A stretch of 64,000 bases of DNA, from contig CAVUAN010000005.1 in NCBI GenBank assembly GCA_963739435.1, positions 168,128-232,127 on the forward strand, given 5' to 3'. Numbering within the stretch: position 1 is the first letter of the stretch; each line of letters begins with the position of its first letter. The position numbers and the translations under genes are program-made. The notes under the pieces are model-generated. The model was not told the origin of the DNA, searched no databases, and saw only the letters and a program-made list of their open reading frames with translations. Below are positions 34,493-51,437 of this stretch, piece by piece. The DNA is from an uncultured Acidobacteriota bacterium. GTDB lineage: Bacteria; Acidobacteriota; Thermoanaerobaculia; UBA5066; Gp7-AA6.

Positions 34493-35763
34493 CGCGCCAC
34501 TGCCATCTGCGGGCGCAGGGCCTTCTTCATGAACGCCATCTGGAGAACCAGGTTGGCGATCGTGAACAGGCTCGTTGCTACGGCCACTCCGATCAGCCCG
34601 AACTCGAAGAACGCGAGAACCTTCAGCGGAACATAAAAAGTGAACGTGATGATGCCGAAGCGCGTCGGCGTGCGCGTATCGCCGGCCGCGTAGTAGGAGG
34701 CCGAGCTGATCTGGCCCAGCGCTCCGGCGATGAGCACTCCGCCCAGGCCGGCCATGAGCAGCCAGAGCTGGTTCACGTTCTGCGCGGTGACCCCGCCATG
34801 CCCGATGAGCAGGTGCAGGAGCCGATTGCCGGTAGCGAGAAAGACGGCGAACCCACCGCCGGCCAGGACCGCCATCCAGAGCAGCCGCTTGCGCACCATT
34901 CGCCGGAAGACGGGCCAGTCTCTCTGTGCCGCCTGCACGGCCAGCTTCGGGACCATCGGCGAGGTGATGGCCTTGTTCAGGACCTGGGACGCCGCTCCCC
35001 AGATCTGCTGGCCGATCACGAGCAGGGACAGGCCTCCGGCCGGAGCCATCGAAGACAGGAAGCGGTCCACGAGAGGATCGGTCTTGTAGTACGTCGTCCC
35101 GACGAGCAGAGGCCTGATCCGGCGCCAGGCCGTTCGAAACGCCGCGGCATCCCCGTGGCCAGTCCGCCATCCTCCGATGCCGGGCAGCAGGAGGGCGACC
35201 TGCAGGCCGGTCCGCAGCACGCCCGCCCACGCCGCGGCGAGAATGCCGATCCGCGGGAGGGTACCGACGAGGGCCACGAAGGCCAGCGAAGCGGCTATCA
35301 CAGGAACCGTGTCCGCCCAGAGAAAGCGGTGACGGGCGTATTGCGCGGAAGACAGCGCGGCGGCCCCCGCGGTGAACACGATCGAGAAGAGCTGGATGCG
35401 GGTCAGCCGCACGGTCAGCTCGAGAGCGGCCGGGTCGAAGCCCGGCAGAAGCCAGCGGACCCAGAGCGGGGCCGTCGCGAACATGAGGGCCGCGAACGCG
35501 GCAAAGACCCCCGTCACGCCCAGGAAGAAGCCCCAGGCCGTCCGGTTGAAGTGCTCCGGGTCTTCGTTGGCGAGCAGCGGCACGAGGACGTGCACCAGGG
35601 AGCCTCCCACGACCGCCAGGACGAGCTGGGGGACGGCCATCCCGGCGTAAAGCGCATCGGTTGCGACCCCGACGCCCAGGCTCGTGACGACATACCACTG
35701 GATCAGAAGACCCAGCAGCAGGTTCGTCGCCGCCAGCCAGCCCAGAGCGAGATTGAGCTTCAT
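34489..35763 (-). CDS. MurJ/MviN-like MOP-superfamily flippase, first gene of the glycan operon
   Basis: Intact 424-aa ORF with about 12 TM helices. The N-terminus (..LGVGVATDALYAGMAVPQLVLAVVGGSL..) resembles the MurJ family. Confidence 0.6.
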   Translation of the reverse strand: MKLNLALGWLAATNLLLGLLIQWYVVTSLGVGVATDALYAGMAVPQLVLAVVGGSLVHVLVPLLANEDPEHFNRTAWGFFLGVTGVFAAFAALMFATAPLWVRWLLPGFDPAALELTVRLTRIQLFSIVFTAGAAALSSAQYARHRFLWADTVPVIAASLAFVALVGTLPRIGILAAAWAGVLRTGLQVALLLPGIGGWRTGHGDAAAFRTAWRRIRPLLVGTTYYKTDPLVDRFLSSMAPAGGLSLLVIGQQIWGAASQVLNKAITSPMVPKLAVQAAQRDWPVFRRMVRKRLLWMAVLAGGGFAVFLATGNRLLHLLIGHGGVTAQNVNQLWLLMAGLGGVLIAGALGQISSASYYAAGDTRTPTRFGIITFTFYVPLKVLAFFEFGLIGVAVATSLFTIANLVLQMAFMKKALRPQMAVAR

Positions 35764-35781
35764 GAAGCTTGCGCCGCGCCG

Positions 35782-35810
35782 AAAGTCTCAGATTGAGGCG
35801 GAAACGTCAA
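35782..35810 (-). promoter_or_regulatory. Weak candidate promoter for the glycan operon
   Basis: The minus strand reads TTGACG, a 17-nt spacer, then GACTTT, about 18 nt before the ATG at 35763. The -10 element is poor and I saw no Shine-Dalgarno sequence. Confidence 0.2.
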
Positions 35811-35826
35811 ACCGGCCACATCGAGC

Positions 35827-35855
35827 TTGCACGGCGGTCGCGCCGGGATTACCCT
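35827..35855 (+). promoter_or_regulatory. Candidate sigma70-type promoter for fibre-like paralogue A1
   Basis: TTGCAC, a 17-nt spacer, then TACCCT. An equivalent box pair precedes paralogue A2. Confidence 0.35.
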
Positions 35856-35886
35856 AGGCGCACAAGAGATCTCGGTTCTGTTCAGG

Positions 35887-36046
35887 GGGAGTCCAACTCA
35901 ATTGTCTTGAGCCGTCCCAGCGGTTCCGGTTTTGGTCTTTGGACGGGAACCTCGGGGACGCCTCTCGACCGAAAGGAGGCGACCAGACACGGCCACACGA
36001 GCATCGCGATGTCGAAACCTGCTTTCATCAAGAATAGGAGGCTTTC
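35887..36046 (+). promoter_or_regulatory. Conserved leader of about 160 nt, copy 1 (candidate cis-regulatory RNA or operator region)
   Basis: By hand alignment, about 150 of 160 positions are identical to 40180-40337. The leader contains the palindrome CTCAA-TTGTC-TTGAG. It also contains the hairpin CGCCTC(11 nt)GAGGCG, whose 3' arm is a decoy Shine-Dalgarno sequence identical to the real GGAGGC at 36037-36042. Confidence 0.5.
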
Positions 36047-37867
36047 GTGAGTCGGAAAACAACCCGCTGGATCAGTCTCGCCCTGGGTCTGGTGTTCCTC
36101 GCAACGGTCCCCCTGCTCGCGGCCGCAGCAGCACCTCCCCTGACAAACTGGACCTCCCCGGCGACATACACCCCGCAATCGACTCGAAAGGGTCTTCATA
36201 CGGCCGGGGACCTCACGGGCCCACTGCCATTCGTTCCCATCGCACCGTGCCGGCAGTACAACACGACCAGTCCCGTGGCGCCGCTCCTGCAAGCCACGAA
36301 CCGGGCCGTGCCGCTGACGGGCGCGCCCTGCGGGATCCCGACAGATGCGGTCGCGGTTGCGGTCAACATCACGATTTTCAACATCATCGGCGCGGCTGGA
36401 AACGGCGTCTTCAAGGTCGACACCGTGTCGCCGCCACTGAACGCCTGGATCAACTATCCGCCGACGGAGGCGCAAAGGGGTAACGCCGGAGTCGTGTCCT
36501 TGAATGCCAGCGGCCAGATCATCGTTCAGGTGGCCCAGGGCGCCGGCCAGATCGACTTCGTCGTCGACACCAACGGCTACTACCCAAATACGGACTCCAC
36601 ACATCTCCTGAACGTTGGTGAAATGTTCCAGATAGCCTCGAACAACGCCGGCACCCCTGTGATCCTCGGTGTCAACACCAACACCAGCGCCAACAGCACC
36701 GGCGTCCGCGGCCTTGCCCTCAGCACGACCGGTGGCGGAATTGGGGTGTGGGGTCAGCACTTCGGCTCGGGCTGGGGCGTGTACGGCTTTTCGCCGAGCG
36801 GCATCGGGGCCTTCGGCCAATCCAATACCGGTCTTGGCGTTGAGGGACTGAGCACGGACTACAACGGTGTCTGGGCCCAAGCCACGAACTGGGATGCTCT
36901 GGCCGCGTTCGGCGGCCGGGATGGCGGATATCTCCAGGGCGCTCGCCACGGTGTCATCGGCGTCTCGACGGCGACAACCGGCATCGTCTACGGCGTCGAC
37001 GGGTCCTCAGCCAGTCCTGCCAACGGCTCCGCGGGAGTCCGAGGCTTCGATAGCAGCGGATACAGCCCGGCCGGGGCGCCAAACGGGCAGGCTGGAGTCT
37101 TTGGAACCAGTCAAACGACATTCGGTGTGGTGGGTACATCGCGTTACGCGGGTGTTTACGGGCAGCTCATGAACGGAGCGGATGCCCTGATCGCTTATGG
37201 CCTCCTCGGGACGACCTTTGGCACGGCCGCTGACACCACGACGGGTCCCTGGGGAGTCTTCTCCGCCGGTAACTTCGGAGCGACAGGCACGAAGCACTTC
37301 GTCGAGCCGCATCCGAGCGATCCCAAGAAGGTGATCCTGTACTCCTCGATTGAAGGTCGAACAGTCGATAACTTCTTCCGCGGTACGGCTCGTTTCGTCA
37401 ATCATGAAGCTGTCATCGAGGTGCCGGAAGACTTCCGCATCGTTACGGACGAGGACGGCCTGACGGTGCAGCTGACTCCGGTGGGAGGCTTTGCTTCAAT
37501 GTACATCGAGAGCCAGGACCTCAACCGGATCGTCGTGAAGTCCAACAAGGACGTGCAGTTCCACTACCTGATCCAGGGCATACGCCGGGCCTACAAGGAC
37601 TTCCTGCCAGTCCAGACAGGTTACGAGTTCATGCCGACCTCGCCGGAAGACCGGTTGCCCTTGTATCTGACAGAGGAATCCAGGCGGCGCCTGATCTCCA
37701 ACGGCACCTACAACGCCGACGGGACTGTCAATATGACGACGGCCGAGCGGGTGGGTTGGGCAAAGATTTGGGCCGACAAGGCTCAGGCAGCGGCTGAGGC
37801 GGCCAAGGCGGCCCAGGCGCGCGCGCAAGAGATGTCCGTCTCCAGGGTTTCTTCGCAACAGCAGTAG
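36047..37867 (+). CDS. Secreted fibre-like protein, paralogue A1: signal peptide, N-terminal two-Cys module, Gly-rich repeats, conserved C-terminal domain
   Basis: - GTG start after AGGAGG.
- Signal peptide MSRKTTRWISLALGLVFLATVPLLAAAAA.
- Module ..APCRQYNT..GAPCGIP..VVDTNGYY.
- Degenerate G-[VI]-x-G-x-S repeats.
- C-terminal region GTKHFVEPHPSDPKKVILYSSIEGRTVDNFFRG...NGTYNADGTVNM. Confidence 0.8.
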   Translation: MSRKTTRWISLALGLVFLATVPLLAAAAAPPLTNWTSPATYTPQSTRKGLHTAGDLTGPLPFVPIAPCRQYNTTSPVAPLLQATNRAVPLTGAPCGIPTDAVAVAVNITIFNIIGAAGNGVFKVDTVSPPLNAWINYPPTEAQRGNAGVVSLNASGQIIVQVAQGAGQIDFVVDTNGYYPNTDSTHLLNVGEMFQIASNNAGTPVILGVNTNTSANSTGVRGLALSTTGGGIGVWGQHFGSGWGVYGFSPSGIGAFGQSNTGLGVEGLSTDYNGVWAQATNWDALAAFGGRDGGYLQGARHGVIGVSTATTGIVYGVDGSSASPANGSAGVRGFDSSGYSPAGAPNGQAGVFGTSQTTFGVVGTSRYAGVYGQLMNGADALIAYGLLGTTFGTAADTTTGPWGVFSAGNFGATGTKHFVEPHPSDPKKVILYSSIEGRTVDNFFRGTARFVNHEAVIEVPEDFRIVTDEDGLTVQLTPVGGFASMYIESQDLNRIVVKSNKDVQFHYLIQGIRRAYKDFLPVQTGYEFMPTSPEDRLPLYLTEESRRRLISNGTYNADGTVNMTTAERVGWAKIWADKAQAAAEAAKAAQARAQEMSVSRVSSQQQ

Positions 37868-37889
37868 ATTCAGACCTGCGTGCGGATTC

Positions 37890-37927
37890 GAGGGCCGCGG
37901 CGCTAGGCCGCGGCCCTCTTCATTTTT
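37890..37927 (+). terminator. Rho-independent terminator after A1 (lies between convergent genes)
   Basis: A 12-bp perfect stem (GAGGGCCGCGGC / GCCGCGGCCCTC, 5-nt loop) is followed by TTCATTTTT. Confidence 0.7.
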
Positions 37928-40088
37928 GCGGCGGGTCCCCGCGCCGGTTCTTTCTCTTTTCCGCCTGCTCCTGCAGCGCTCGCTCGAGATTGTTCCGGGC
38001 CATCGTCAACCCCGGTTCCAGCCGGAGAGCCTCTCGGTACTCCTCGATGGCCGCTTCCCGGTGCCCCCCCAGGAAGAACGCGTAGCCGAGGTTGTTGTGA
38101 GCCAGGGCGAAACCCGGATTGATGCTCAGGGCCAACCGATACTCGGCCGCGGCCTCGTCGACCCGAGCTTCCTGGAGCAGGAGGCTTCCCATGTCGTTGT
38201 GTGCCTCCGCAAACGCCGGAAAGAGCTCCAGCGCCTGCCGGAGGTGATCGAGCGCATCGACTTTCTTCCCCCGACCCTGAAGCGCGAGGCTCGCGTTCCG
38301 ATGGGCCGCGGCCAGAAATCTGCGCATCTCCTCGGCGGCGGGATCGGCACTTCTTCGATCGAGAGCACGCGCGCCGTCTAAGAGATGGCGGTAGTCTGCC
38401 TCCTGCGGGGCCCGGAGGACGGTACGCTCGAGTTGATCAATGGCTGCTGCCGTCTGTCCATCCACCAGGAGGGCGATCCCGAGCCTTGCCCTGGTCTCTG
38501 CCCAATCGGGAGCCAGACGGGTGGTCGTCTGGTAGAGCCGGACTGATTCTGAGATTTCGCCTTGTTGGAACCGCGTCCTTGCGAGGTTGTTCATGGCGAC
38601 CGGATCTCCCGGCGTCAGGCGAAGGGATTCGGTGAAATGCTGCGCCGCTTCGTCGAACCGGCCCAGTAGAAAAAGAGACCGGCCGAGGTTGGTGTGAACC
38701 TCGTTGGCCTCCGGACGGAGGCGCAAGGCCTCGAGGAGATGGGGCAGAGCGTCCGCAGGCCTGCCCAGCTCGTTGTAGTAGTCGCCCAGATTGGTCCGCA
38801 CGATCGGATTGCCCTTCGTGACCTCGAGGGCGTGGAGGTAAAGGGTCTCGCTGTTCTGCCAGATGCGCGCCTGCCTGGCCGCAAACAACGCCAGAGCAGC
38901 CAGGGCAGCCGCGGCGGCCATCCGGAACGCCAGGTCTCTGTGCCGCCAGGCCAACGGGACCTCCGCAACGCCCCAGGTGATCGCGATGAACAGGCCGACA
39001 AAGGGAAGATAGGTGTAGCGATCGGCAAGTGCCTGCAGGCCCACTTGAACGAGGCCGATGACAGGAAGAAGAGTGATGACGAACCAGAACCATCCGACGA
39101 AAAGATATGGGGCGCTTCGCCGGAAGACGACGGCCGCCGCCGAAACGGCGGCGAGCAGAAGCGCGGCGCCGATGACTTTCCAGGCGGGCAGCGAAGTCCC
39201 CGGATGCGGGTAGAAGACAGCCAGGTTGGTGGGCCAGAAGAGCATGCAGATGTAGCGGACATACGCGACGAGCGCGTTCCCGACGCGAGTCCACAAAGGA
39301 AACTTTTCGAAAGTGCCGAGGGCTCCCCCGGCCCGCTGAGCCACCACGGTCACAACCGAGGAGGCCGCAGCCATCAGGAAGAGAGGAACTTTCTCGAGGA
39401 CTCGTGGCGCCGCGCCACCGCCGTATCTCGAAAGAGGCCAGTCATCGAGAAGAAGCAGCACCACCGGAAGCGAGACCAGCATTGGTTTCGACATGAGTCC
39501 GGCTGCGAACAGGCCCAACACAATCAGGTAGCGGCCGACACCGCGCCGGCGGGCCCAGGAACCATAAGCCCACATCGTCGCGAACCAGAAGACGGCGCTG
39601 AGCAGATCCTTCCTCTCCGCAACCCAGGCGACCGACTCCACGTGCGCCGGATGGACCGCAAAGAGGGCAGCGACAAAGGCACTGCGCCAGGAGTCGGTCG
39701 TCAGGCTGTGAAGCGCGCCGAAGAGAAGAAGCGTAGCGACGACATGCAGCAACAGACTGGTTGCATGATGGCCCGCAGGGTTCAATCCGAAGGCCGAGAC
39801 GTCCGCCATGTGCGAGAGCCAGGTCAGGGGATGCCAATTGGCTGCGTACACCGTCGTGAAGGCCCACCGGAGGCCCGCCCATGTCAACCCTGCGCCGACG
39901 GGGTCGTTTCGCGTCACATAAGAGTTGTCGTCAAAGTTGGTGAAGTCGCTTCGCAGGACCGGCCACAAGGTCGCTACAGAAAGAGAAACGAGAAACAGAA
40001 CAGGGAGGAGTAGTCGGACCGCCTTCGAACCGCTCGGAGAGCCAGCCCGGTCGCGATCAAGCCGATTTGCTGCACGGCGACGCGACAA
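37920..40088 (-). CDS. TMTC-like GT-C-fold glycosyltransferase with C-terminal TPR array
   Basis: The N-terminal half is polytopic and contains the family-typical ..SDFTNFDDNSYVTRNDPV.. and ..ANWHPLTWLSHM.. The C-terminal ~330 aa are tandem TPR repeats. The start is TTG at 40088. Confidence 0.75.
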   Translation of the reverse strand: MSRRRAANRLDRDRAGSPSGSKAVRLLLPVLFLVSLSVATLWPVLRSDFTNFDDNSYVTRNDPVGAGLTWAGLRWAFTTVYAANWHPLTWLSHMADVSAFGLNPAGHHATSLLLHVVATLLLFGALHSLTTDSWRSAFVAALFAVHPAHVESVAWVAERKDLLSAVFWFATMWAYGSWARRRGVGRYLIVLGLFAAGLMSKPMLVSLPVVLLLLDDWPLSRYGGGAAPRVLEKVPLFLMAAASSVVTVVAQRAGGALGTFEKFPLWTRVGNALVAYVRYICMLFWPTNLAVFYPHPGTSLPAWKVIGAALLLAAVSAAAVVFRRSAPYLFVGWFWFVITLLPVIGLVQVGLQALADRYTYLPFVGLFIAITWGVAEVPLAWRHRDLAFRMAAAAALAALALFAARQARIWQNSETLYLHALEVTKGNPIVRTNLGDYYNELGRPADALPHLLEALRLRPEANEVHTNLGRSLFLLGRFDEAAQHFTESLRLTPGDPVAMNNLARTRFQQGEISESVRLYQTTTRLAPDWAETRARLGIALLVDGQTAAAIDQLERTVLRAPQEADYRHLLDGARALDRRSADPAAEEMRRFLAAAHRNASLALQGRGKKVDALDHLRQALELFPAFAEAHNDMGSLLLQEARVDEAAAEYRLALSINPGFALAHNNLGYAFFLGGHREAAIEEYREALRLEPGLTMARNNLERALQEQAEKRKNRRGDPPQK

Positions 40089-40142
40089 GATCCGTCGAGT
40101 TTAACCGAGCCCGCCCCGCTCGCCGAACTGGCCTCGTCGGGG

Positions 40143-40171
40143 TTGCGCTGCTGGCGCGCCGGGGTTAGTTT
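40143..40171 (+). promoter_or_regulatory. Candidate sigma70-type promoter for paralogue A2
   Basis: TTGCGC, a 17-nt spacer, then TAGTTT. The conserved leader begins about 9 nt downstream. Confidence 0.35.
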
Positions 40172-40179
40172 TGTCCAGC

Positions 40180-40337
40180 GGGAGTCCAACTCAATTGTCT
40201 TGAGCCGTCCCAGCGGTTCTGGTTTGGCCTTTCGACGGGAACCTCGGGGACGCCTCTCGACCGAAAGGAGGCGACCTGACACGAGACACGAGCATTGCGA
40301 CGTCGAAACCTGCTTTCATCAAGAATAGGAGGCTTTC
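40180..40337 (+). promoter_or_regulatory. Conserved leader of about 160 nt, copy 2
   Basis: See copy 1. This copy has the same palindrome, the same CGCCTC/GAGGCG hairpin and the same GGAGGC Shine-Dalgarno sequence. Confidence 0.5.
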
Positions 40338-41990
40338 GTGAGTCGGAAAACAACCCGATGGATCAGTCTCGCCCTGGGTCTGGCGTTCCTCGCAACGGTC
40401 CCTCTGCTCGCCGGCGCAGGAGAACCTCCCCTGACAAACTGGACCTCCCCGGCGAAATACACCCTCCCCCCATCGGCTCGAAAGGGGCTTCATACGGCAG
40501 GGGACATCGCCGGCCCGGAGCCATTCATTCCGATCGCACCGTGCCGGCAGTACAACTCGCTTAGCGCGACGCCGCTCCTGCAAGCCACGAACCGGGCCGT
40601 GACGCTGACGGGTGCGCCCTGCGGGATCCCGGCGACTGCGAAAGCGGTTGCGGTCAACATTACGATTTTCAACATCAACGGCGCGGCCGGAAACGGCGTT
40701 CTCAAGGTGGACACGGTGTCGCCGCCGGTGACCGCCTGGATCAACTACCCGCCGACGGAGCAACAAAGGGGCAACGCCGGAGTCGTGTCCTTGAATGTCA
40801 GCGGCCAGATCTGGGTCCAGGTCGCCCAGGGCGCCGGCCAGATCGACTTCGTCGTCGACACGAATGGTTACTTCGGCAGCAGCCCCGCCACCAGCCAGGA
40901 CTGGTTCGAGGTCGACAACAACAGCTCTACCTTTACGATCTTCGGAAATAACTCCTCGACGACCTGCAGTCAAGATTGCGGTGTCGTGGGGCAGACGGCC
41001 AGCGGGTGGGCTGTTTACGGACTCAGCTTCAACGACGTCGGCGTTTACGGATCCAGTTTCGGGAGCGGCATCGGAGTGGCCGGAGTCTGGGGGTCCAGCA
41101 CCGATGCCATCGGCACCTACGGGCACAGCACCAACACCAACGGCATGTGGGCCGACAGCACGACCTTCGACGCTTTGGCCGCGTTCGGCGGCCGCGACGG
41201 GACCTTCAGCCAGGGCGCCCGGAATGGCGTCGTCGGAGTGTCCACCGGCACCACATTGCCGGTCTATGGTGCGATTGGTCAAGGGATGAGCTCTAGCTCC
41301 AGCGCCGCCGGAATCTTCGGCACGACCAATCAAGCTGTCGCCAACGCGGGATACTTCACCAATACCGGCGCCGGGACCATCACATACATCGGTACTCAAA
41401 TCCTCGGAACCAATTACGACATCTTCGGGAGCGGTAGGATCCAGGGCAATTCCCTCAACATCATCGGCGCGCCCAAGAACTTCGTCGCGCCTCACCCTCT
41501 GGACCCCTCCAAAGAGATCGTGTACGCCTCCGTCGAGGCCCCGACCGTGGACGTCTACTTCCGCGGCACCGGGACGCTCTCCAACGGTTACGCGCACATC
41601 GAGGTGCCCGACCATTTCCGCTTCACGGCTCGTGAAGGGACCTACATGACCACGCTGACCCCGGTCGGGCGGCCGATCGGCTTGAGCGTCGAGTCGGAAG
41701 GGCCGGAGGGGATCGTCGTGCGCGGGAGCGGGAACGCCAGCTTTCACTACGTCGTGTACGCCGAGCGCGCCGAGATCGTCGGATACGAGCCGGTCCAGAA
41801 GAACGTGACCTTCACACCCGAGGCCATGGAAAAGATTCAGTTGCTGAACGCGTTGCCGGAGTCGACGAAAGCGCTCCTCGTCAAGAACGGGACCCTCAAC
41901 CCCGACGGCTCCTACAACCTGGAGACGGCTGGCGCCATGGGATGGACCGTCCCGAAGCCGATCGCCACCGACGCAGCGACTCGAAAGTAG
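40338..41990 (+). CDS. Secreted fibre-like protein, paralogue A2
   Basis: Same architecture as A1, with a more diverged C-terminal domain (APKNFVAPHPLDPSKEIVYASVEAPTVDVYFRG...). Confidence 0.8.
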   Translation: MSRKTTRWISLALGLAFLATVPLLAGAGEPPLTNWTSPAKYTLPPSARKGLHTAGDIAGPEPFIPIAPCRQYNSLSATPLLQATNRAVTLTGAPCGIPATAKAVAVNITIFNINGAAGNGVLKVDTVSPPVTAWINYPPTEQQRGNAGVVSLNVSGQIWVQVAQGAGQIDFVVDTNGYFGSSPATSQDWFEVDNNSSTFTIFGNNSSTTCSQDCGVVGQTASGWAVYGLSFNDVGVYGSSFGSGIGVAGVWGSSTDAIGTYGHSTNTNGMWADSTTFDALAAFGGRDGTFSQGARNGVVGVSTGTTLPVYGAIGQGMSSSSSAAGIFGTTNQAVANAGYFTNTGAGTITYIGTQILGTNYDIFGSGRIQGNSLNIIGAPKNFVAPHPLDPSKEIVYASVEAPTVDVYFRGTGTLSNGYAHIEVPDHFRFTAREGTYMTTLTPVGRPIGLSVESEGPEGIVVRGSGNASFHYVVYAERAEIVGYEPVQKNVTFTPEAMEKIQLLNALPESTKALLVKNGTLNPDGSYNLETAGAMGWTVPKPIATDAATRK

Positions 41991-42015
41991 TTTCGTCAAG
42001 CATCGAAGATTCCAT

Positions 42016-42041
42016 CTGCCGCGGCGATGTTGCCGCGGCAG
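42016..42041 (+). terminator. Hairpin (possible attenuating terminator) between A2 and A3
   Basis: A 10-bp stem (CTGCCGCGGC / GCCGCGGCAG, 6-nt loop) is followed by a T-poor tail (AGTCCTTTCTT). Confidence 0.45.
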
Positions 42042-42072
42042 AGTCCTTTCTTATCCCGAGAGGAGGCCTTTC

Positions 42073-43758
42073 GTGACCCGGAAGACAACCCGATCGATTC
42101 ATCTCGGTCTTTGTCTCGCGCTCCTCGCAACAGTGCCCCTACTCGCAGCGGACATACCGCTGAAGAACTGGACCGCTCCGCCGACGTACAGCCCGTCATC
42201 GACCCTAAAGGGTCTCCACACGGCAAGCGACATCTCGGGTCCGGTCCCATACATTCCGACCTCTCCGTGCCGGCAATACAGCTCGCTCGGCACGCCACTT
42301 CCACAAGGGATAAACCGGACCGTGCTCCTGACGGGAGCGCCCTGCGGAATTCCGGCGGGCGCCGTGGCAGTCTCCGTCAATATTACCGTCTTCAACATCA
42401 CGGGCGCAGCCGGAAACGGCGTCTTCAAGGTCGACACCGTGTCGCCGCCGTTGAGCGCATGGATCAACTACCCGCCGACGGAGGCGCAACGGGGCAACGC
42501 CGGGGTCGTGGCTCTGACCATCGGAGGCCAGATCATCGTTCAGGTCGCCCAGGGAGCCGGCCAGGTCGACTTCGTCGTGGACACGAATGGTTATTACTCC
42601 AACACACCCGCCTCGGCGAACAACTACTTCCTCGTGTCGAACAACAGCGACTCGTGGACGATCCAGGGCATCAACAGTTCCTCGAGCTGCATCCAACAGT
42701 GCGGCATCGTTGGGCTGACGAGCAGCGGCTACGCTCTCTATGGAGTCAGTGCCAACTCGGACGGCGTTCACGGCGTCAGTGGCGGGAGCGGCCTCGGTTC
42801 GGCGGGAGTCTGGGGGACCAGCACCGATGCCATCGGCACCTACGGGCACAGCACCAACACCAACGGAATGTGGGCCGAGAGCACGACCTTCGACGCATTG
42901 GCTGCATTCGGCGGCCGCGACGGGACCTTCAGCCAGGGCGCGCGGTATGGCGTTGTCGGAGTCACCTCCGGCAGCTGCTTCGGTTGCGCCGGCGTGAAAG
43001 GCATCGCCTACGATGGAGAAGCACCAGGTAACACCAGCCAGGGCGCGTCCGGGGTGTTCGGTACTTCAACCTTGAACATTGGCGTTCTCGGCACCGCACA
43101 GAGCCTCGGTGAAGGTGTTGCCGGAATCAGTGTGGACGGCTCCGGCGCAATGAAGTCCGCTGGCTATCTCGGATGGTCCAACTCCATCGGTATTGAGTTC
43201 TTCAATGGCCTCGCAGGAAGCGGCACGAAATCCTTCATCGAGCCTCATCCAACCGACGCTTCGAAATTGATCAAGTACGTCTCGATCGAAGGCCCCGAGG
43301 CCGGCGTCTATTTCCGGGGCCGCGGCCGGGCACAAGACGGGCTGGCGACAATCGACGTGCCGGAGAGCTTTCGGATGGTGGCGGCGGGAGAGGGCCTGAG
43401 CATCCAGGTGACGCCGATCGGCGAACCGGCCAACGTGGCCGTTGTCCAGATCGGCCTGGACCGCATCGTCGTCAAGGCCACACAGGACGTCGAGTTCTTC
43501 TACACGGTCAACGGCGTCCGCAAGGCCTACCCCGATTGGAACCCCATTCAGGACAACCTCAAGGAGTTCGTTCCGGAGGGCCCGGGCTCCCGCCTCCCCG
43601 CCTACCTCAGCGCAAACGAGAGGCAGCGCCTGATCGACAACGGCACCTATCACGCCGACGGCACGGTCAACATGGAGACGGCCCGACGGGTCGGCTGGGA
43701 TCAGCTCTGGCAGGCGAAAGCCGAGGAAGCGGCGCGGCGGCGCGAACCGCCTCGGTAG
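42073..43758 (+). CDS. Secreted fibre-like protein, paralogue A3
   Basis: GTG start after GAGGAGGC. Same architecture as A1. C-terminal region GTKSFIEPHPTDASKLIKYVSIEGPEAGVYFRG...NGTYHADGTVNM. Confidence 0.8.
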   Translation: MTRKTTRSIHLGLCLALLATVPLLAADIPLKNWTAPPTYSPSSTLKGLHTASDISGPVPYIPTSPCRQYSSLGTPLPQGINRTVLLTGAPCGIPAGAVAVSVNITVFNITGAAGNGVFKVDTVSPPLSAWINYPPTEAQRGNAGVVALTIGGQIIVQVAQGAGQVDFVVDTNGYYSNTPASANNYFLVSNNSDSWTIQGINSSSSCIQQCGIVGLTSSGYALYGVSANSDGVHGVSGGSGLGSAGVWGTSTDAIGTYGHSTNTNGMWAESTTFDALAAFGGRDGTFSQGARYGVVGVTSGSCFGCAGVKGIAYDGEAPGNTSQGASGVFGTSTLNIGVLGTAQSLGEGVAGISVDGSGAMKSAGYLGWSNSIGIEFFNGLAGSGTKSFIEPHPTDASKLIKYVSIEGPEAGVYFRGRGRAQDGLATIDVPESFRMVAAGEGLSIQVTPIGEPANVAVVQIGLDRIVVKATQDVEFFYTVNGVRKAYPDWNPIQDNLKEFVPEGPGSRLPAYLSANERQRLIDNGTYHADGTVNMETARRVGWDQLWQAKAEEAARRREPPR

Positions 43759-43818
43759 TCGGCGGCAGATTTCTCATCATGACGGAGAGTGCTCTTCCAT
43801 CAGGAACAGGAGGCCATC

Positions 43819-45588
43819 GTGAGTTGGAAAAGAGCCCGATGGATCGGTCTCGTCCCGGGTCTTGTGTTGCTCGCAACGGTTCCCCCGCTCGCCGCCGCGG
43901 ACATACCCCTCAAGAACTGGACCGCCCCAGCGACATACACGCCGCCGGCCGCCCGAAAGGGGCTCCACACGGCAGGGGACATCGCGGGTCCGCTGCCATA
44001 CATCCCGATCGCACCGTGCCGCCAATACAGCTCGCTCAGCGCGACTCCGCTCCTGCAAGCCGTGAACCGGCCCGTGCCGCTGACGGGCGCGCCCTGCGGG
44101 ATCCCGGCAACAGCCGTCGCGGTGGCGGTCAACATCACGATTTTCAATATCGTCGGCGCGGCCGGAAACGGCGTCTTCAAGGTCGACACCGTCTCACCGC
44201 CCCTGACCGCCTGGATCAACTACCCGCCGACGGAGGCCCAACGGGGTAACGCTGGAGTCGTGTCCCTGGACGTCAGCGGAGAGATCATCGTTCAGGTCGC
44301 CCAGGGCGCCGGCCAGGTCGACTTCGTCGTTGACACGAACGGCTACTACGGCATCACTCCCGCCACTGTCTCGAACTTCTTCAAGATCGAGAACAACAGC
44401 CCCGGCTTGTCGATCCAGGCAATCAATGACTCGACAACCTGTTTCGGTCCTTGCGGTATCGAAGGGTTCGTCGAAGGCGGTAACGCCATTTCCGGTTTCG
44501 CCAACGCATCGACCGGCGCCACGTACGGGGTCGAAGGTCACACCCAGAGCGTGAGCGGCAACGCGGCCGGAGTCTTTGGAAGCGCCGGCAACACGAACTT
44601 CCAGGCCGGCTTCGGCGCCGGGCCGGCAGGCGTGCGGGGACAGAACACGTTCAACGGGGTCCTCGGCCTCGCTCAGGATCGAGCCGTCGTTGGCATTCTG
44701 TTCGACGGCACAGGCCCGCCCGCAAACGATATCGCCGAGGGTTGGCTGGGAAAAAGCGGCGCCTCCTCCTCGATCTTCTATGGCGTCGAGGGGGTCCTGG
44801 TCGGGGCCGCATCCAACGGTGCTGCCGGGGTGGAGGGAACCGACGTCGGAGGCATCGTGGGGTCGCCAGACAACTCCTTCCAGGCTGGCGTACGCGGCGA
44901 CTCGGCGGGTAACTTCGGAGTGCTGGGGATCAGCGGCTTCGTTGGCGCTCGCGGTCGCCACTACAGCGGCGTCACCTTCAGCACTCTCGATACCGAGGGA
45001 AGCCTTGCTTGCTCAGCGACAATCGCCGTCTGCGGCCTGGGCAATCTGAGCATCTCGGGATCGAAGTCCTTCGTCGAGCCACACCCAACCGACGCGACCC
45101 GAGTCATAAAGTACGTTTCTCTGGAAGGACCCGAGGCTGGCACGTATTTCCGGGGCACCGCCCGGGTGCGCGGCGGAAAAGCGGTCATCACTGTCCCCGA
45201 GAGCTTTCGGCTCGTCACGTCCAACGACGGGCTGACGGTGCAGCTCACGCCCGTAGGCAGCCTGGCCAGGATGGCCGTCGAGCAACAGGACCTGCAGCAG
45301 GTCGTGGTCATTTCCGACCATGACGTCACGTTCCACTACACCGTCCAGGGAATCCGGCGCGGATTCGAGGATTTTGATGCGATGCCCGAGGATTCGACTT
45401 TCCAACCCGAAGGACCCAACGGCAGGATGCCCGCCGCGCTCAGCGCGGTTCAGAAGGAACATCTCGTCGCAAACGGAACCTACAACGCCGACGGTACCGT
45501 GAACATGCAGACCGCGGAGGCGAGGGGGTGGGCCGCCGCCTGGCGCGACCGCGAGGCCAGGGCGCGTGCGGCGCAAAACGCGAAGTAG
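43819..45588 (+). CDS. Secreted fibre-like protein, paralogue A4
   Basis: I trimmed track ORF 43789..45588 to the GTG at 43819, preceded by CAGGAGGC, by analogy with A1-A3 (VSWKRARWIGLVPGLVLLATVPPLAAA). Same architecture as A1. Confidence 0.75.
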   Translation: MSWKRARWIGLVPGLVLLATVPPLAAADIPLKNWTAPATYTPPAARKGLHTAGDIAGPLPYIPIAPCRQYSSLSATPLLQAVNRPVPLTGAPCGIPATAVAVAVNITIFNIVGAAGNGVFKVDTVSPPLTAWINYPPTEAQRGNAGVVSLDVSGEIIVQVAQGAGQVDFVVDTNGYYGITPATVSNFFKIENNSPGLSIQAINDSTTCFGPCGIEGFVEGGNAISGFANASTGATYGVEGHTQSVSGNAAGVFGSAGNTNFQAGFGAGPAGVRGQNTFNGVLGLAQDRAVVGILFDGTGPPANDIAEGWLGKSGASSSIFYGVEGVLVGAASNGAAGVEGTDVGGIVGSPDNSFQAGVRGDSAGNFGVLGISGFVGARGRHYSGVTFSTLDTEGSLACSATIAVCGLGNLSISGSKSFVEPHPTDATRVIKYVSLEGPEAGTYFRGTARVRGGKAVITVPESFRLVTSNDGLTVQLTPVGSLARMAVEQQDLQQVVVISDHDVTFHYTVQGIRRGFEDFDAMPEDSTFQPEGPNGRMPAALSAVQKEHLVANGTYNADGTVNMQTAEARGWAAAWRDREARARAAQNAK

Positions 45589-45632
45589 ATCGCGCGGCGG
45601 CACGAACCGCCGGGTAGTCGGCGGAGAGGATG

Positions 45633-47402
45633 CTACTGGAAGTAGCCGTTGACGTCGACGACGACGTGGGCGGTGCCGGAGCCCTGCTGGCAGTAGATGG
45701 TGACGGAGCCTGGCCCGCCGAGCGGCATGATGGCGTTGTTGGCCCGGGTCTGTCCCGACTTGTAGTTGATCGTCGCGGCCTGGGGCAGATCGGAGACCCC
45801 GGGCCGCATCGTCAGGAAGCCCGGGCCCGCCGTGGGCTGCGTCACGGCAACGTTGAGCGAAACGGCTGTCGCTGTCGGAGGGATCCCGCACTGCCCTGCA
45901 AGGAGGAAGGTACGATCCGCTCCGTCGTTGAGGGCGGGTCCGCCGTACGGCCCGTCAACGTCGCGCGTATCCACGACCCGGCACGGCTGGACAGTGTAGA
46001 AGCTCGGCGTCGGGCCCGCCGTTACCGGGGCGCACGCGGAAAACTCCGACGTGTCACTGAAAACGTCCGTCGACGTCGCCGTTACGACCGAGCCGGGCGC
46101 GAGGCTCGCCATGAATAGCCCCGAAAACGTCCCGTTGCAGGACGAGTCGGTCGCCACGAGCATCGACCCGATGTAGGTCTTTCCTTCGCCATTTCCGGAC
46201 GCGTTGCAAGATGGCGAAGTGAAGAACTCAAGCGTGTAGAGGGCGTCCGGCTCACTATTCAGCGTCCCGTCGATCCGCACCTGGCTCCCGATCTGCGTCG
46301 CTTGAGTTAGCACCGGAAAGTTCAACAGCAAGTTGGGGCCCGTGTCCGCGTCGCAGGGATCGTTGGGCGTAACGCCAGGTCCCACGCCGCCCACCAGATC
46401 GATGCCCAGACCATTGCCGAAGATCGCGTTCCTCGAGATCGGGTTGCGCACCGATGTCCCGTCGATGGACACACCGGTGCCGTTGAAGGCGATCACGTTA
46501 GCCCCGGCGCCTCCTCCCACGATGGTCCGGCTGCCCGTACTAATGTGTACGCCGGCAAGCTGGCTAGGCAAGGAGCCCTGGCCCAAGGCGTCCGGCCCGA
46601 TTGTGTTGCCCTGAATCGTGACGTCGTTGACGCCGCTGATGTCGATCCCGTATGCGTTGTTGCCGGAAATGAGATTCCCAAAACCGGGGAAAGGTCCCCC
46701 GATCAGTGTTCCGGTAGCGGAAGAGAAGTAGACGAAGATGCCAGTGAAATTAGGAACGGCAGCCGTCCCGGCGGCGTTTGTCCCAATCCGGTTGCCCACG
46801 ATCAGCGCCAGTCCCTGCGCCCAGATTCCGTAATTATTTCCCGAAATGAGGTTCCCCTCGCCGGGCGAAGTGCCGCCGACGGTTGGTCTGTAGGAGCTGT
46901 TCTGAACAATCACCCCGATGCCGTTTGGTCGAGCGAATTGCCCCGTGGGATCCGTCCCGATGAAGCTGCTCACGACCTTCGCGTCCCCTTGCAGGTAGAT
47001 CCCAGCATTGGGGCAGTTGTTGATGACGACGGCCCTGACGACGCTCGACCACCCAAAACCCATACAGGTATAGCCAGCCGGCAGAAGACTTCCGTCGATC
47101 TGGATCAGCGGAGTCCCGGCGTAGCCCGGCTGCGTCGTTCCGTCGACGATCACGGTCCCGGCGACGCCCAGGCCCCCCGATAACGGGCGAATCGTCTTGA
47201 CGCCCGTGCCGATCGAGAAGGCGACTGTTCCACCCGGAAAGCCATCGGCATCAGCCAGTGCCTGCCGCAGCGAGCCTGGTCCCGAGTCGTTCGTGTTGGT
47301 CACGGTATAAATCGCTGCAGCGGCAGTTCCGGGCGCAGCCAGGGCGAGCACGAGCACTAGCCCGAGGCGCAAGAGAGGGCCCGTAGTCGGCTTGACCAGC
47401 AC
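45633..47402 (-). CDS. Secreted right-handed beta-helix protein (CSLREA-type N-terminus) with C-terminal two-Cys module (B1)
   Basis: A signal peptide is followed by IYTVTNTNDSGPGSLRQALADA. Repeated ..GN.I.GN..GI.. beta-helix turns follow. The C-terminus is FYTVQPCRVVDTR...VVVDVNGYFQ*. Confidence 0.8.
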   Translation of the reverse strand: MLVKPTTGPLLRLGLVLVLALAAPGTAAAAIYTVTNTNDSGPGSLRQALADADGFPGGTVAFSIGTGVKTIRPLSGGLGVAGTVIVDGTTQPGYAGTPLIQIDGSLLPAGYTCMGFGWSSVVRAVVINNCPNAGIYLQGDAKVVSSFIGTDPTGQFARPNGIGVIVQNSSYRPTVGGTSPGEGNLISGNNYGIWAQGLALIVGNRIGTNAAGTAAVPNFTGIFVYFSSATGTLIGGPFPGFGNLISGNNAYGIDISGVNDVTIQGNTIGPDALGQGSLPSQLAGVHISTGSRTIVGGGAGANVIAFNGTGVSIDGTSVRNPISRNAIFGNGLGIDLVGGVGPGVTPNDPCDADTGPNLLLNFPVLTQATQIGSQVRIDGTLNSEPDALYTLEFFTSPSCNASGNGEGKTYIGSMLVATDSSCNGTFSGLFMASLAPGSVVTATSTDVFSDTSEFSACAPVTAGPTPSFYTVQPCRVVDTRDVDGPYGGPALNDGADRTFLLAGQCGIPPTATAVSLNVAVTQPTAGPGFLTMRPGVSDLPQAATINYKSGQTRANNAIMPLGGPGSVTIYCQQGSGTAHVVVDVNGYFQ

Positions 47403-49558: not shown

Positions 49559-51437
49559 CTATTGGAAATACCCGTTGACGTCGACGACGACATGGACCGT
49601 GCCCGAACCCTGCCCGCAGTGAATGATGAGATCTGTGTTGACACCCAGGAGCGTGTTCACATTGTTACTGCGCGTTTGACCCGACTTGTAGTTGATCGTC
49701 GCGGCCGACGGCAGCGGAGCGCCCACCGGATAGAGCGTCAGGAAGCTCGGGCCCGTCGTCGGCTGCGTCACCGCCACGTTCAAGGACACGCCCCTGGCTC
49801 CCGGCGGAATCCCGCACTGGTTCGCAAACACAAACGTCCGATCCGCTCCAGCCGCGAGCGCGGGCAAGCCATACGACCCATTAGCGATGCGCGTGTCGAT
49901 CACCCGGCAAGGCGGCACCGTGTAATAGCCGACGTTGTTGGTGTAGGTGAAGGCGTTGGGAAGCGCCGCCGCCTGCGCGTCCGGGTTCGTCACCGTCACG
50001 CCGACGGTTGCAGCGCTGCCCGCCGGAGCCGTGGCCTGGAGAGTCGTCGAGTTCGACGAAGGTGCTCGAAACCGACGCGGCTCCGAAGGCAACCGTCGCG
50101 CCCGAGACGAAATTCGTGCCGGCGACCGTAACGAGCGTCCCCCCTGCCGTCGGCCCGAAGTTCGGCGTGACGCTCGTGACCGTCGGCGCCGGCAGCGGCG
50201 CGCACGAGGTGAGCCCGTCGCCGTAGATCCACCGAATGGCGTCCTGATCGTCCGTGCCCAGCGTCGTACGGTTCTGTACAAGCCAGTACATGGTCGCGCT
50301 GCCTTCATCTCCCGGGCAAACGTCGTGCGGTGAGACAACAGTATTGGCCGGGTTCTGCTCGCCCGAGTGGCCGAGACCGAGAGTGTGACCGAGTTCGTGA
50401 GTCACGACGGACTGCATCGTCACTGAGCCGTAATCATTCAGATTGCAGAGAGGGCGTACCCAGACCTTCCCGCTGGTGATCGTCGAATACGTTTCGCCTC
50501 GCCAGGAATGGGATCCTGATAAGGTCTGCGGTCCTCCACAGCCGATGACGCCGGCACCCGCCAAGCAGGTCGACCACCCGCAGGGCGAAGTCGGCGCCGC
50601 GAGGTCGATTATGTTCCCCGAGCCAATTGTGAAGCTGATAGTCGAATCGGGATCGTTCGTCCAGGCGGCCAAGGCACCAATAGCCTCGGCGGTCCCGCCA
50701 CCCGTGATGTTCACTGAGTTCTGCAGCACCCACGAAGCAGTCGGCGGGTTCCACCGAACAAGGCTGGTGCTGCCGTAGATGTTGGACCACTCCGGCTGGA
50801 TTTGCATTCCGCCGGCGACCACATGGACGACGGGGACAGCCGTCCCTGGGGACGGCAGTCGACCGAGTCTCCCGCGCTCCCAATCGCAGCGATCGCAGCA
50901 TCGCCGACAGCTCGCGGGCGGGGTCCGTCGAGAGCGGCGCGTCAGTCTCAAGCCGCTTGCGGCGCGGCTGCACCGTGACCTGCGCATGACCTACCGCGAG
51001 AGCCGGCACGGCGAACGCCACACCGCGCTCGTCATTCTGCACTTCGAACTTCCCGAGCAGCATCTCCGACGTTTGATACTCGCCCTGCACGCGCGCGATC
51101 GCAAAGACAATGACCTCGCGACCGGGGACGTACTCCGGCGCGCCCCACAGCTTGAAGGAACGCCCGTCGGGCAGCTGCCCGCCCAGTTGGTGCAGAATCA
51201 GTGGCCCCCGCAGGCTCCCTTTCAAGACCTCGATCGGCTCAACGACCGTGAGCATCTCGGGCCGGCCCTCGCTCGTCTACAGTCACGTCGCTCGAGACGA
51301 CGATGCCGTGCACGATGACTTGGGACCGGTCGTAGAGCTCCTATCGCTGATCGGGATGATCGAAGTCGCAAGCAACGCTGACGCCCGCGATTGAGGCGAG
51401 CAGAGCCCCCGACAGCTCCCTGCGAAAACCGTGTCAT
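49559..51437 (-). pseudogene. Metzincin-type zinc metalloprotease + IPT/TIG domain + C-terminal two-Cys module (B4), at least four reading-frame disruptions
   Basis: - The ATG at 51437 forms an ATGA junction with B5.
- Lipoprotein-like signal ..ALLASIAGVSVAC.
- HELGHTLGLGHS zinc site.
- IPT/TIG domain PTVTSVTPNFGPTAGGTLVTVAGTNF.
- C-terminus YYTVPPCRVIDTR...VVVDVNGYFQ*.
- These segments lie in different frames (ORFs 50434..51255, 49881..50987, 49559..50338) and there is an in-frame TAG. Confidence 0.65.

Follow-up and report, generated by a model that had tools for sequence, protein, structure and literature searches.

The mosaic adhesive trimeric (MAT) fibres of Bdellovibrio bacteriovorus are trimeric along their whole length and are exposed at the cell surface (Caulton et al. 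2024, PMC10769870; PDB 8OND, 8OK3 and others). Members of this family share a homologous beta-rich N-terminal domain of ~130 aa that immediately follows the signal peptide, and end in either a Peptidase_S74 chaperone (SDxxxK) or another independently folding cap, the tips being swapped among paralogues (PMC10769870). Degenerate short repeats like those described below are found in the surface fibres of the YadA-family trimeric autotransporter adhesins. Acidobacteriota are abundant and mostly uncultured and, to our knowledge, almost nothing is known of their surface structures.

Four genes, A1 to A4, were examined in an uncultured Acidobacteriota bacterium (UBA5066; Gp7-AA6; assembly GCA_963739435.1). 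Coordinates are those of the 64,000-nt window, the whole stretch of DNA analysed (CAVUAN010000005.1, positions 168,128-232,127), in which the locus under study occupies 36047-45588. Like the MAT fibres, the family that includes A1-A4 is represented in a genome by numerous paralogues whose distal parts have been swapped, and its C-termini are likewise S74 or an alternative cap. The first-pass annotation called the architecture of these proteins unusual. The four-part layout that it described (signal peptide, diverged two-Cys module, variable centre and conserved tail) is seen in all of A1-A4, but is less unusual than supposed, as it parallels that of the MAT fibres (PMC10769870). The acidobacterial proteins, at about 550-600 aa, are half the size of the MAT proteins (about 1000 aa). 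The MAT host is a predator that uses such fibres in prey recognition, whereas we know of no predatory lifestyle for this acidobacterium.

Genes and domain layout

A1-A4 are four plus-strand open reading frames, of which the last is open across 43789-45588. The features of the interval are as follows.

35889..36046, plus strand: conserved leader 5' of A1, with a twin at about 40180-40337, 5' of A2
36047..37867, plus strand: A1, 606 aa; signal peptide, N-module (~59-179), centre (180-415), tail (416-606)
37890..37918, plus strand: terminator-like hairpin 3' of A1; 12 pairs, 11/12 G-C, then a T-run
37920-40088, minus strand: gene for a multi-TM plus TPR protein unrelated to A1-A4
40338..41990, plus strand: A2, 550 aa; architecture as A1, centre at residues 180-379
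42073..43758, plus strand: A3, 561 aa; the paralogue chosen for structure modelling
42238..42597, plus strand: A3 two-Cys N-module, residues 56-175; beta-sandwich in the AlphaFold2 model
42598..43227, plus strand: A3 Gly-rich centre, residues 176-385; GVxGxS-type units, 21% Gly
43228..43563, plus strand: A3 phage-type C-terminal beta domain, residues 386-497; starts at the G-[ST]-K-x-F-[VI]-E-P-H-P junction
43564..43758, plus strand: helical extension at the C-terminus of A3, residues 498-561; carries the NGTY.ADGTVNM.TA..GW motif, and the coordinates include the stop codon
43819..45588, plus strand: A4, 589 aa when read from the likely GTG start (599 aa from 43789)

The GTG at 43819 is most likely the start of A4, as its spacing from AGGAGG is that seen in A1-A3 and the product then has 589 aa, as does database entry P0004. 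Only short gaps separate A2 from A3 and A3 from A4, and the three probably form one transcription unit with A2 first. The 187 nt upstream of A1 and A2 are 86% identical overall and nearly identical between GGGAGTCCAAC and the start codon, with identity of only 50% over the next 100 nt further upstream; no Rfam family matches this leader. A polysaccharide synthesis cluster lies directly upstream of A1-A4, the neighbours of which are polysaccharide genes and genes for exported enzymes, and no capsid, tail, baseplate, terminase or integrase genes were found in the surrounding 30 kb.

In pairwise alignments A2-A4 match A1 end to end with 53-55% identity, and the four are true paralogues. Mean pairwise identity among them is 64% in the signal peptide and linker, 82% in the two-Cys N-module (the most conserved part among the four), 30% in the Gly-rich centre and 44% in the tail, while in the wider family the N-module and the C-terminal domain are about equally conserved (0.65 versus 0.69). 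The per-region identities, in A1-A4 as in the wider family, agree with the earlier statement that the ends are conserved and the centre variable, and this pattern of sequence conservation fits the suggested diversification of an exposed surface. No matches to A1-A4 were found in Pfam (E <= 0.1) or in NCBIfam and PDB sequence searches, consistent with the earlier remark that the pattern in their tail has no assigned function. Among 8000 candidates, 688 relatives were identified (E <= 1e-3). Relatives form tandem arrays amid housekeeping genes, and one 2.9 Mb contig has at least 13 paralogues.

The N-module, centre and tail

The N-module of A3 was modelled with a core pLDDT of 93-97 (AlphaFold2 monomer). 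It is a member of an unnamed two-Cys jelly-roll family, having ~120 aa, the pattern PCR...(G)xCGIP...N...D.NGY[YF] and a beta-sandwich fold, and both Cys are at least 90% conserved in 96 aligned family members. The C-terminal and stand-alone modules of neighbouring genes align with it at 31% identity (BLASTP; E 4e-12 and 2e-10), and the alignment pairs both Cys. The genome contains 27 copies, which are N- or C-terminal or, in two cases, stand-alone genes. Thus, unlike the base domain of MAT fibres, the module is also found C-terminally on enzymes, namely proteases, beta-helix enzymes and one sugar dehydrogenase, and on its own; the neighbouring exported enzymes have a single copy each.

When the A3 model was compared with the PDB using Foldseek, the best match was the tip of the MAT fibre Bd2133 (8ond/8ok3; weak, E ~1e-3), followed by a phage cement trimer and nucleoplasmin-type sandwiches (E ~1e-3) and, lower down, by lectin/CBM-like sandwiches. 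As the model of the tail alone did not give the Bd2133-tip, cement and nucleoplasmin matches, these are assigned to the N-module. Homology of the module with the MAT N-domain, which is similar in size and position, was rejected (hhalign probability 0.27%), and the two are different domains. Searching the genome of B. bacteriovorus with the module profile gave no match at E <= 10, and no MAT-type N-domain was found in the acidobacterial genome (87% complete).

A signal peptide and N-module are shared by a 12-member mosaic family in this genome, and those of A1-A4 also head seven other proteins. The phage-type cap is carried by five members (A1-A4 and C3:23147-24976), four combine the N-module with YadA-head-like NTAxG repeats and an S74-type C-terminus, two have collagen and CBM_5_12 (CBM5/12) with a different C-terminal domain, and one is short. 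Pfam confirmed Peptidase_S74 (PF13884) in both S74-type members scanned (E 4e-11 and 6e-10), and collagen (E 6e-43) together with CBM_5_12 in the one collagen-type member scanned. Collagen repeats and S74-chaperoned fibres are trimeric, and the presence of the same head on Peptidase_S74 or collagen-repeat proteins lends independent support to a fibre reading of A1-A4. The possibility that A1-A4 are themselves YadA autotransporters was rejected, as they match no YadA anchor barrel, head or stalk in Pfam or NCBIfam; the anchor proposed for them would be an N-terminal soluble module, whereas that of YadA is a C-terminal barrel. Nor is their C-terminus a Peptidase_S74 domain, as there was no Pfam match to PF13884 at E <= 0.1 and the SDxxxK dyad is not conserved: the junction Lys is invariant, but the Ser/Thr preceding it is not (GAPKNF in A2).

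The centre had been described as degenerate Gly-rich repeats of about 9-11 residues that might resemble beta-helix or YadA-head repeats. It is indeed Gly-rich (18-22% in A1-A4) and degenerate, but the usual distance between its G[VIALM]x[GA] units is 8-14 residues, some being separated by 20-28, and this irregular spacing indicates that strict periodicity is lacking. Both boundary motifs were found in 63 of the 96 family members aligned, and in these the centre is 136-276 aa long; GVxG positions, including a conserved island DALAAFGGRDG, are retained across the 96 sequences. In the AlphaFold2 monomer of A3 the centre has few strands and no regular repetitive fold, with pLDDT of 49-83 per 10-residue block (65-83 over most of its length), and no repeat family was matched in Pfam or the PDB. 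The putative shaft of A1-A4 is Gly-rich with GVxGxS units, whereas that of MAT fibres is a demonstrated beta-helix.

The tail, first reported as about 200 aa, is conserved but measures ~175-190 aa and has two parts, a beta domain of ~110 residues and a helical extension of ~60 residues. All of the motifs originally quoted (K..F..PH..D, E.GPE..YFRG, VPE.FR and NGTY.ADGTVNM.TA...GW) are present and nearly invariant in the 96 members, and the K-x-F-x-x-x-H-P / E-x-P-E / Y-x-G pattern that had been likened to tail-fibre-like proteins of other phyla corresponds to a real domain family, whose members include minor tail and tail-fibre-like proteins of phages as well as many proteins of bacteria. In the suggested search of phage sequences, A1-A4 were found to belong to two PHROG profile families. 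Matches to phrog_17490 were obtained for A1 (residues 410-514; E 7.3e-11), A2 (2.5e-6), A3 (6.5e-13) and A4 (1.5e-15), and those to phrog_28536 had E values of 9.9e-9 to 1.4e-4 across A1-A4, with a value of 3.2e-10 also recorded for A3. In addition, tblastn found the beta domain in 40 phage records, its relatives are encoded by 331 IMG/VR contigs, and 5971 cluster representatives match it.

The phage proteins of these families have a homologous C-terminal beta domain of ~110 aa with 30-36% identity, and share with A1-A4 the G-[ST]-K-x-F-[VI]-x-x-H-P junction and the E-G/S-P-E, P-E/D-x-F and T-P/G-x-G motifs. The domain ends gp19 of Arthrobacter phage Mufasa8, which is the final minor tail protein downstream of the tape measure, and gp218 of Flavobacterium phage vB_FspM_immuto_3-5A, a 'putative tail fiber-like protein'. 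Both of these annotated proteins are fibre-like and rich in Gly/Ser/Thr. In the alignment with these two, the invariant residues are K, F, HP, E, G, P, T.G, R and F. Relatives are also encoded in T4-like cyanophages. However, the phage proteins are virion parts and have no signal peptide or two-Cys module, and the ~60-aa helical extension is absent from both of the proteins aligned. In other Acidobacteriota, the same C-terminal domain caps proteins that carry a Bdellovibrio-MAT-type N-domain.

The model of the A3 tail alone has a pLDDT of 93.6. Its best matches in the PDB, though weak (E >= 1e-2), are without exception trimeric fibres or spikes of phages and pyocins. Foldseek against BFVD identified collagen-repeat, tail-fibre-like and minor tail proteins of phages with E values as low as 2.6e-9, the alignments reaching 200-360 columns into phage fibre proteins. 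The helical extension is predicted to form three helices with high pLDDT (AlphaFold2) and, in a scan of the phylum, had no match beyond the same family and order. The conservation of the C-terminal domain looks too high for a specificity determinant and, by analogy with S74, it may have a role in folding.

A possible surface fibre and alternatives

It is moderately likely that A1-A4 are Sec-exported subunits of homotrimeric surface fibres that resemble phage tail fibres and form part of the 12-member mosaic family. Such fibres would have the N-terminus proximal to the cell and may be adhesive. The two-Cys jelly-roll following the signal peptide would be the conserved base, three per fibre making a three-lobed foot that could dock on an envelope component, possibly polysaccharide from the adjacent cluster. 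As the module also occurs C-terminally on the neighbouring exported enzymes, it is proposed to be a general surface-holding plug, although, as those enzymes carry one module each, a count of three per assembly may not apply to them. The Gly-rich GVxGxS centre would be the shaft and, as the paralogues differ there in sequence and length, may carry most of the ligand-contact or antigenic diversity. The C-terminal beta domain, replacing the S74 chaperone of the four sister paralogues, would cap the distal end, where it would most probably nucleate folding of the trimer, starting at the C-terminus, and may also touch the ligand, with the lineage-specific helical extension packed against it.

The polarity could be reversed, as the nearest solved relative of the module is a distal adhesive tip and not a base. 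The module would then be a lectin-like head, and the fibres would either be anchored through the extension and the C-terminal domain or be set free to cross-link an exopolysaccharide matrix. This arrangement would account for the lectin/CBM-like sandwiches among the structural matches, for the CBM-like C-terminal position of the module on proteases, beta-helix enzymes and the sugar dehydrogenase, and for a helical extension that is lineage-specific, as expected of an anchor to a lineage-specific envelope; the secreted stand-alone modules and the polysaccharide cluster directly upstream also favour it. However, phage fibres and S74-terminated fibres are attached by the N-terminus with the C-terminus distal, and an S74 terminus is present in four sister paralogues that share this N-module. 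The 82% identity of the N-module among the four paralogues is also a better fit to a constant docking partner than to varied ligands, though this argument is weakened by the near-equal conservation of the two end domains across the family. Reversed polarity or a free cross-linker is therefore considered unlikely.

Less likely again is a monomeric secreted multidomain protein, in which a flexible, low-complexity Gly/Ser/Thr linker joins the binding module to a C-terminal domain with a binding or enzymatic function. The low secondary structure content and moderate confidence of the modelled centre, its irregular repeat spacing and the lack of a Pfam or PDB repeat family are consistent with such a linker, but plain linkers do not keep GVxG positions and the DALAAFGGRDG island in 96 sequences, and most of the centre has a pLDDT of 65-83, above the values usual for disorder. 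The extension of the BFVD alignments into phage fibre proteins and the collagen- or S74-type fibres with the same head also argue against it. That A1-A4 are true tail fibres of a prophage remnant or tailocin is very improbable. While the C-terminal domain is common in phage tail proteins, virion fibres lack the Sec-type signal peptides present in 4/4 of these proteins, the surrounding 30 kb is free of phage structural and integrase genes, the relatives are located among housekeeping genes, and the N-module, with its 27 copies in the genome, is a cellular module.

Implications for possible surface display in Acidobacteriota

If A1-A4 are surface fibres, a broader and more tentative proposal is that the two-Cys jelly-roll serves as the general docking plug, able to form trimers and C-terminal on enzymes and N-terminal on fibres, of an undescribed display system in Acidobacteriota and other phyla, with a common envelope receptor that is perhaps the neighbouring polysaccharide. 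In that case A1-A4 would be a set of variable fibres that arose independently of the MAT fibres and converged with them, by recombining the plug with a phage-exchanged cap. The likeness to the SLH (or CWB2) domains, through which exoenzymes and S-layer proteins are anchored to a polymer of the cell wall, is by analogy only: in both cases one small module is found on many unrelated exported proteins, at either terminus, with a proposed action in threes. However, there is no sequence or fold relation, the host is presumably a diderm, and the threes would come from trimerisation here but from tandem copies in SLH.

This large, wholly unannotated family gives two unnamed domain families a defined architecture, and would let both be named. 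The phrog_17490 domain, widespread in phages, would be a mobile fibre cap, exchanged between proteins of phages and of cells, and mosaic phage-like fibres with swappable ends, reported in 2024 in a predator, would occur in a second phylum with a different base. The family would thus give an entry point to adhesion, matrix building or phage-receptor mimicry in Acidobacteriota.

The four paralogues and their genetic context

The first-pass annotation of positions 36047-45588 described four fibre-like paralogues, A1-A4, and the alignment it had proposed upheld this, A2-A4 aligning with A1 from end to end at 53-55% identity. The interval does hold the four genes, but it also includes an unrelated gene on the other strand between A1 and A2.

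Genes in the interval
36047-37867, +, A1, 606 aa
37920-40088, -, multi-TM N-terminal region followed by about 10 TPR repeats (Pfam matches to TPR families only)
40338-41990, +, A2, 550 aa
42073-43758, +, A3, 561 aa
43789-45588 (open frame), +, A4, 599 aa

The probable start of A4 is the GTG at 43819, which has an AGGAGG spaced as in A1-A3 and gives a product of 589 aa, equal in length to the database entry. GC3 of A1-A4 is ~0.8, as in the real genes of the window (63-69% GC).

The ends of the proteins were found to be conserved and the centre variable, as had been claimed. Among A1-A4, pairwise identity averages 82% over the two-Cys N-module and 64% over the signal peptide and linker, against 30% over the centre and 44% over the tail. 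An alignment of 96 family members agrees: the commonest residue has a mean frequency of 0.65 for the N-module, 0.69 for the C-domain and 0.67 for the C-terminal extension, compared with 0.38 for the centre. The centre ranges from 136 to 276 residues among aligned family members. In A1-A4 its Gly content is 18-22%, and its G[VIALM]x[GA] units mostly recur every 8-14 residues. A conserved island within it (A3 residues ~270-300; WA.ST.FDALAAFGGRDG.F.QGAR.GV.GV), which may be a hinge or functional site, is common to A1-A3 and a relative from the same order (locus L005), and has diverged in A4.

The leaders of A1 (35889-36046) and A2 (40180-40337), each of ~160 nt, are near-identical. The two genes share 86% identity over the 187 nt upstream, with near-identity from GGGAGTCCAAC to the start codon, and 87% over the first 100 codons, whereas over the further 100 nt upstream identity is only 50%. 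They could have a regulatory leader in common, or a recent gene conversion could account for the similarity. An Rfam search of 35700-45700, leader included, found nothing near any gathering score, and a sigma-70 promoter scan found sites no more frequently than in shuffled sequence. A strong terminator-like hairpin is located 3' of A1. The short gaps before A3 and A4 suggest that A2-A3-A4 probably form one transcription unit. Within the 82 nt that separate A2 from A3 is a GC-rich 12-pair hairpin followed by a weak T-run (42015-42042), which may be an attenuator setting differing levels of A2 versus A3/A4.

The product of the 37920-40088 gene could be a TMTC/PMT-like glycosyltransferase acting on Ser/Thr-rich fibres. 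At two related loci (L009 and L010), which carry tandem arrays of two and four genes surrounded by housekeeping genes, no gene of this type adjoined the relatives, and they showed no conserved partner gene and no conserved partnership with a TMTC-like gene or secretion system.

No family match to A1-A4 was found in Pfam or NCBIfam, and a match to GatE (E 0.0098, 14 bits) was considered to be noise. PDB sequence searches with the family and tail profiles returned chance matches only (E > 1). A protein search, in which 8000 candidates were scored, identified 688 relatives at E <= 1e-3, all labelled 'hypothetical' and, where a source was named, from Thermoanaerobaculia or Acidobacteriota MAGs. 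Among the matches listed, at least 13 were encoded on one 2.93 Mb contig. A literature search found no papers on tail fibres in Thermoanaerobaculia.

A phage-type domain in the tail

The conserved tail is present in all four proteins, but it proved to be a composite of two pieces rather than a single element. The first is a beta domain of ~110 residues that begins at the junction G-[ST]-K-x-F-[VI]-E-P-H-P, and the second is a three-helix extension of ~60 residues with the motif NGTY.ADGTVNM.TA..GW. Of 201 Acidobacteriota genomes scanned, 27 had the core C-domain, and matches to the extension were confined to the same family and order.

The tail motif had been linked to tail-fibre-like proteins, and searches of phage databases bore this out. 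The beta domain matched phrog_17490 (E 1.5e-15 to 2.5e-6) and phrog_28536, neither of which has an assigned function, and was encoded in 331 IMG/VR contigs and, by tblastn, in 40 phage records, namely T4-like Synechococcus phages, Arthrobacter siphophages and Flavobacterium phages. Gp19 of Arthrobacter phage Mufasa8, the final 'minor tail protein' to follow the tape measure, ends in this domain, as does a 'putative tail fiber-like protein' of a Flavobacterium phage. The residues K, F, HP, E, G, P, T.G, R and F are invariant in the alignment of phage and A-type domains. The tail matched 5971 cluster representatives at E <= 1e-3, of which 1622 reached E <= 1e-10.

A Foldseek search of BFVD matched phage minor tail, tail-fibre-like and collagen-repeat proteins (best E 2.6e-9). 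The tail model is confident (pLDDT 93.6), but as a Foldseek search of the PDB with it found no relative at E < 1e-2, its fold is unsolved; the nearest PDB folds were the receptor-binding domain of the cyanophage Pam1 tailspike, the R2 pyocin fibre and a Klebsiella phage depolymerase. Diphtheria-toxin fold matches were dismissed (rmsd 14-17 A, low probability). Autocleavage of the S74 type at the G-[ST]-K junction was rejected as unlikely from the sequence, because the Ser/Thr ahead of the invariant Lys varies and is missing from A2, which reads GAPKNF. Despite the phage-type domain, A1-A4 are in a non-phage context, and a prophage or tailocin was rejected on the basis of the signal peptides and gene context.

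One N-terminal module with several shafts and ends

Residues 58-176 of A3 form a beta-sandwich in the AlphaFold2 model built from the 96-sequence alignment (pLDDT 93-97 over the module core). This N-module is homologous to the terminal module (...VDVNGYFQ*) of neighbouring exported proteins (31% identity, E 4e-12 and 2e-10), and the two Cys are matched in the alignment. Among the neighbours, the module is found on beta-helix enzymes, on M10/M12 metalloproteases that also have IPT/TIG domains, on a glucose/sorbosone dehydrogenase and on a protein of 1636 aa, and two genes encode the module alone. A profile search found 27 copies in the window's genome. Two genes for metalloprotease-IPT/TIG-module proteins are each split over overlapping or adjacent frames (49559-50987 and 51434-53168, - strand), reflecting either frameshifts or MAG assembly errors.

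Only five proteins in the window's genome carry the tail, A1-A4 and C3:23147-24976. The signal peptide, NW.AP linker and A-type module at their start are shared by 12 proteins in all; the other seven comprise four with YadA-like repeats and an S74-type end, two with collagen repeats and one short protein.

N-module-headed proteins with other shafts and ends (contig:positions in the window's genome, G000)
C8:31541-32611(-), S74-type
C8:206001-206975, S74-type
C15:147358-148368, S74-type
C15:148802-149362, S74-type
C13:13347-16001, collagen-type
C25:79319-80455(-), collagen-type

The S74-type proteins have YadA-head-like NTAxG repeats, an S74-type end and a C-terminal coiled coil, and Pfam confirmed Peptidase_S74 in both of the two that were scanned (E 4e-11 and 6e-10). 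The collagen-type proteins have long collagen GxT repeats with three CBM_5_12 interruptions and a further C-terminal beta domain, and Pfam confirmed collagen and CBM_5_12 in the one scanned (collagen E 6e-43). The two S74-type genes on C15 adjoin each other, and the C25 collagen-type copy appears frameshifted near its end. Collagen repeats and S74-chaperoned fibres are trimeric. Together, the 12 proteins indicate that a single conserved head has been joined to four or more types of shaft and end. This mosaic family partly supports and sharpens the earlier fibre reading, but the AlphaFold2 monomer has few strands in the centre (pLDDT 49-83 per block).

Comparison with Bdellovibrio fibres and a proposed mechanism

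According to Caulton et al. (PMC10769870), Bdellovibrio bacteriovorus encodes 21 'mosaic adhesive trimeric' (MAT) fibres, 13 with S74 at the end and eight with a different cap, and tips are swapped between paralogues. Their N-domain was proposed to bind some element on the predator's surface. The supplements of that paper make no mention of Acidobacteria. The B. bacteriovorus genome examined here gave 13 S74 matches, and four MAT N-domains were extracted for comparison. Homology between these and the two-Cys module was rejected (hhalign probability 0.27%), the module profile having no match in the B. bacteriovorus genome, and a search of the window's genome (87% complete) gave no MAT-type N-domain. 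Such a domain was, however, found in the same ORF as an A-type C-domain in two other Acidobacteriota genomes, G020 and G068 (hhalign 93.9%, E 1.6e-7; HMM E 3e-4 to 5e-3).

Acidobacteriota proteins with a MAT-type N-domain (genome:contig:positions)
G020:C226:436-2548 (locus L007)
G068:C48:202961-204385
G068:C54:26077-27825

These proteins, in which the MAT-type N-domain is combined with GYAYVGYGDDGI-type 30-residue repeats and the phage-type C-domain of A1-A4, indicate that MAT-like fibres also occur in Acidobacteriota.

In the mechanism considered most likely, A1-A4 would be exported via Sec and then trimerise, with nucleation at the C-terminal cap, which would occupy the position of S74 in the sister proteins. 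The three N-modules would form a foot docking on an envelope component, the same one as for the module-bearing enzymes, leaving a Gly-rich shaft, varying in sequence and length, as the source of diversity in a surface fibre that may be adhesive. The PDB fold matches, all of them weak (E >= 1e-3 for the whole A3 model), count against this mechanism. The best were the trimeric Bd2133 tip domain (8ond, 8ok3), a trimeric phage cement protein and nucleoplasmin-type sandwiches, and as the tail model alone gave none of these they belong to the N-module. The polarity could be reversed, with the two-Cys module as a distal binding head instead of the base, because its nearest solved relative is a distal tip.

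With the module as base, A1-A4 would work as MAT fibres do, but they lack the N-domain that defines that family and hence are not members of it. As the cap is joined to a MAT-type base elsewhere, the phage-type domain is one of the caps that such fibres interchange, and A1-A4 use a different base. Mosaic phage-like trimeric fibres are already known, and the evidence partly supports A1-A4 being a variant of them, built from two large unnamed domain families.
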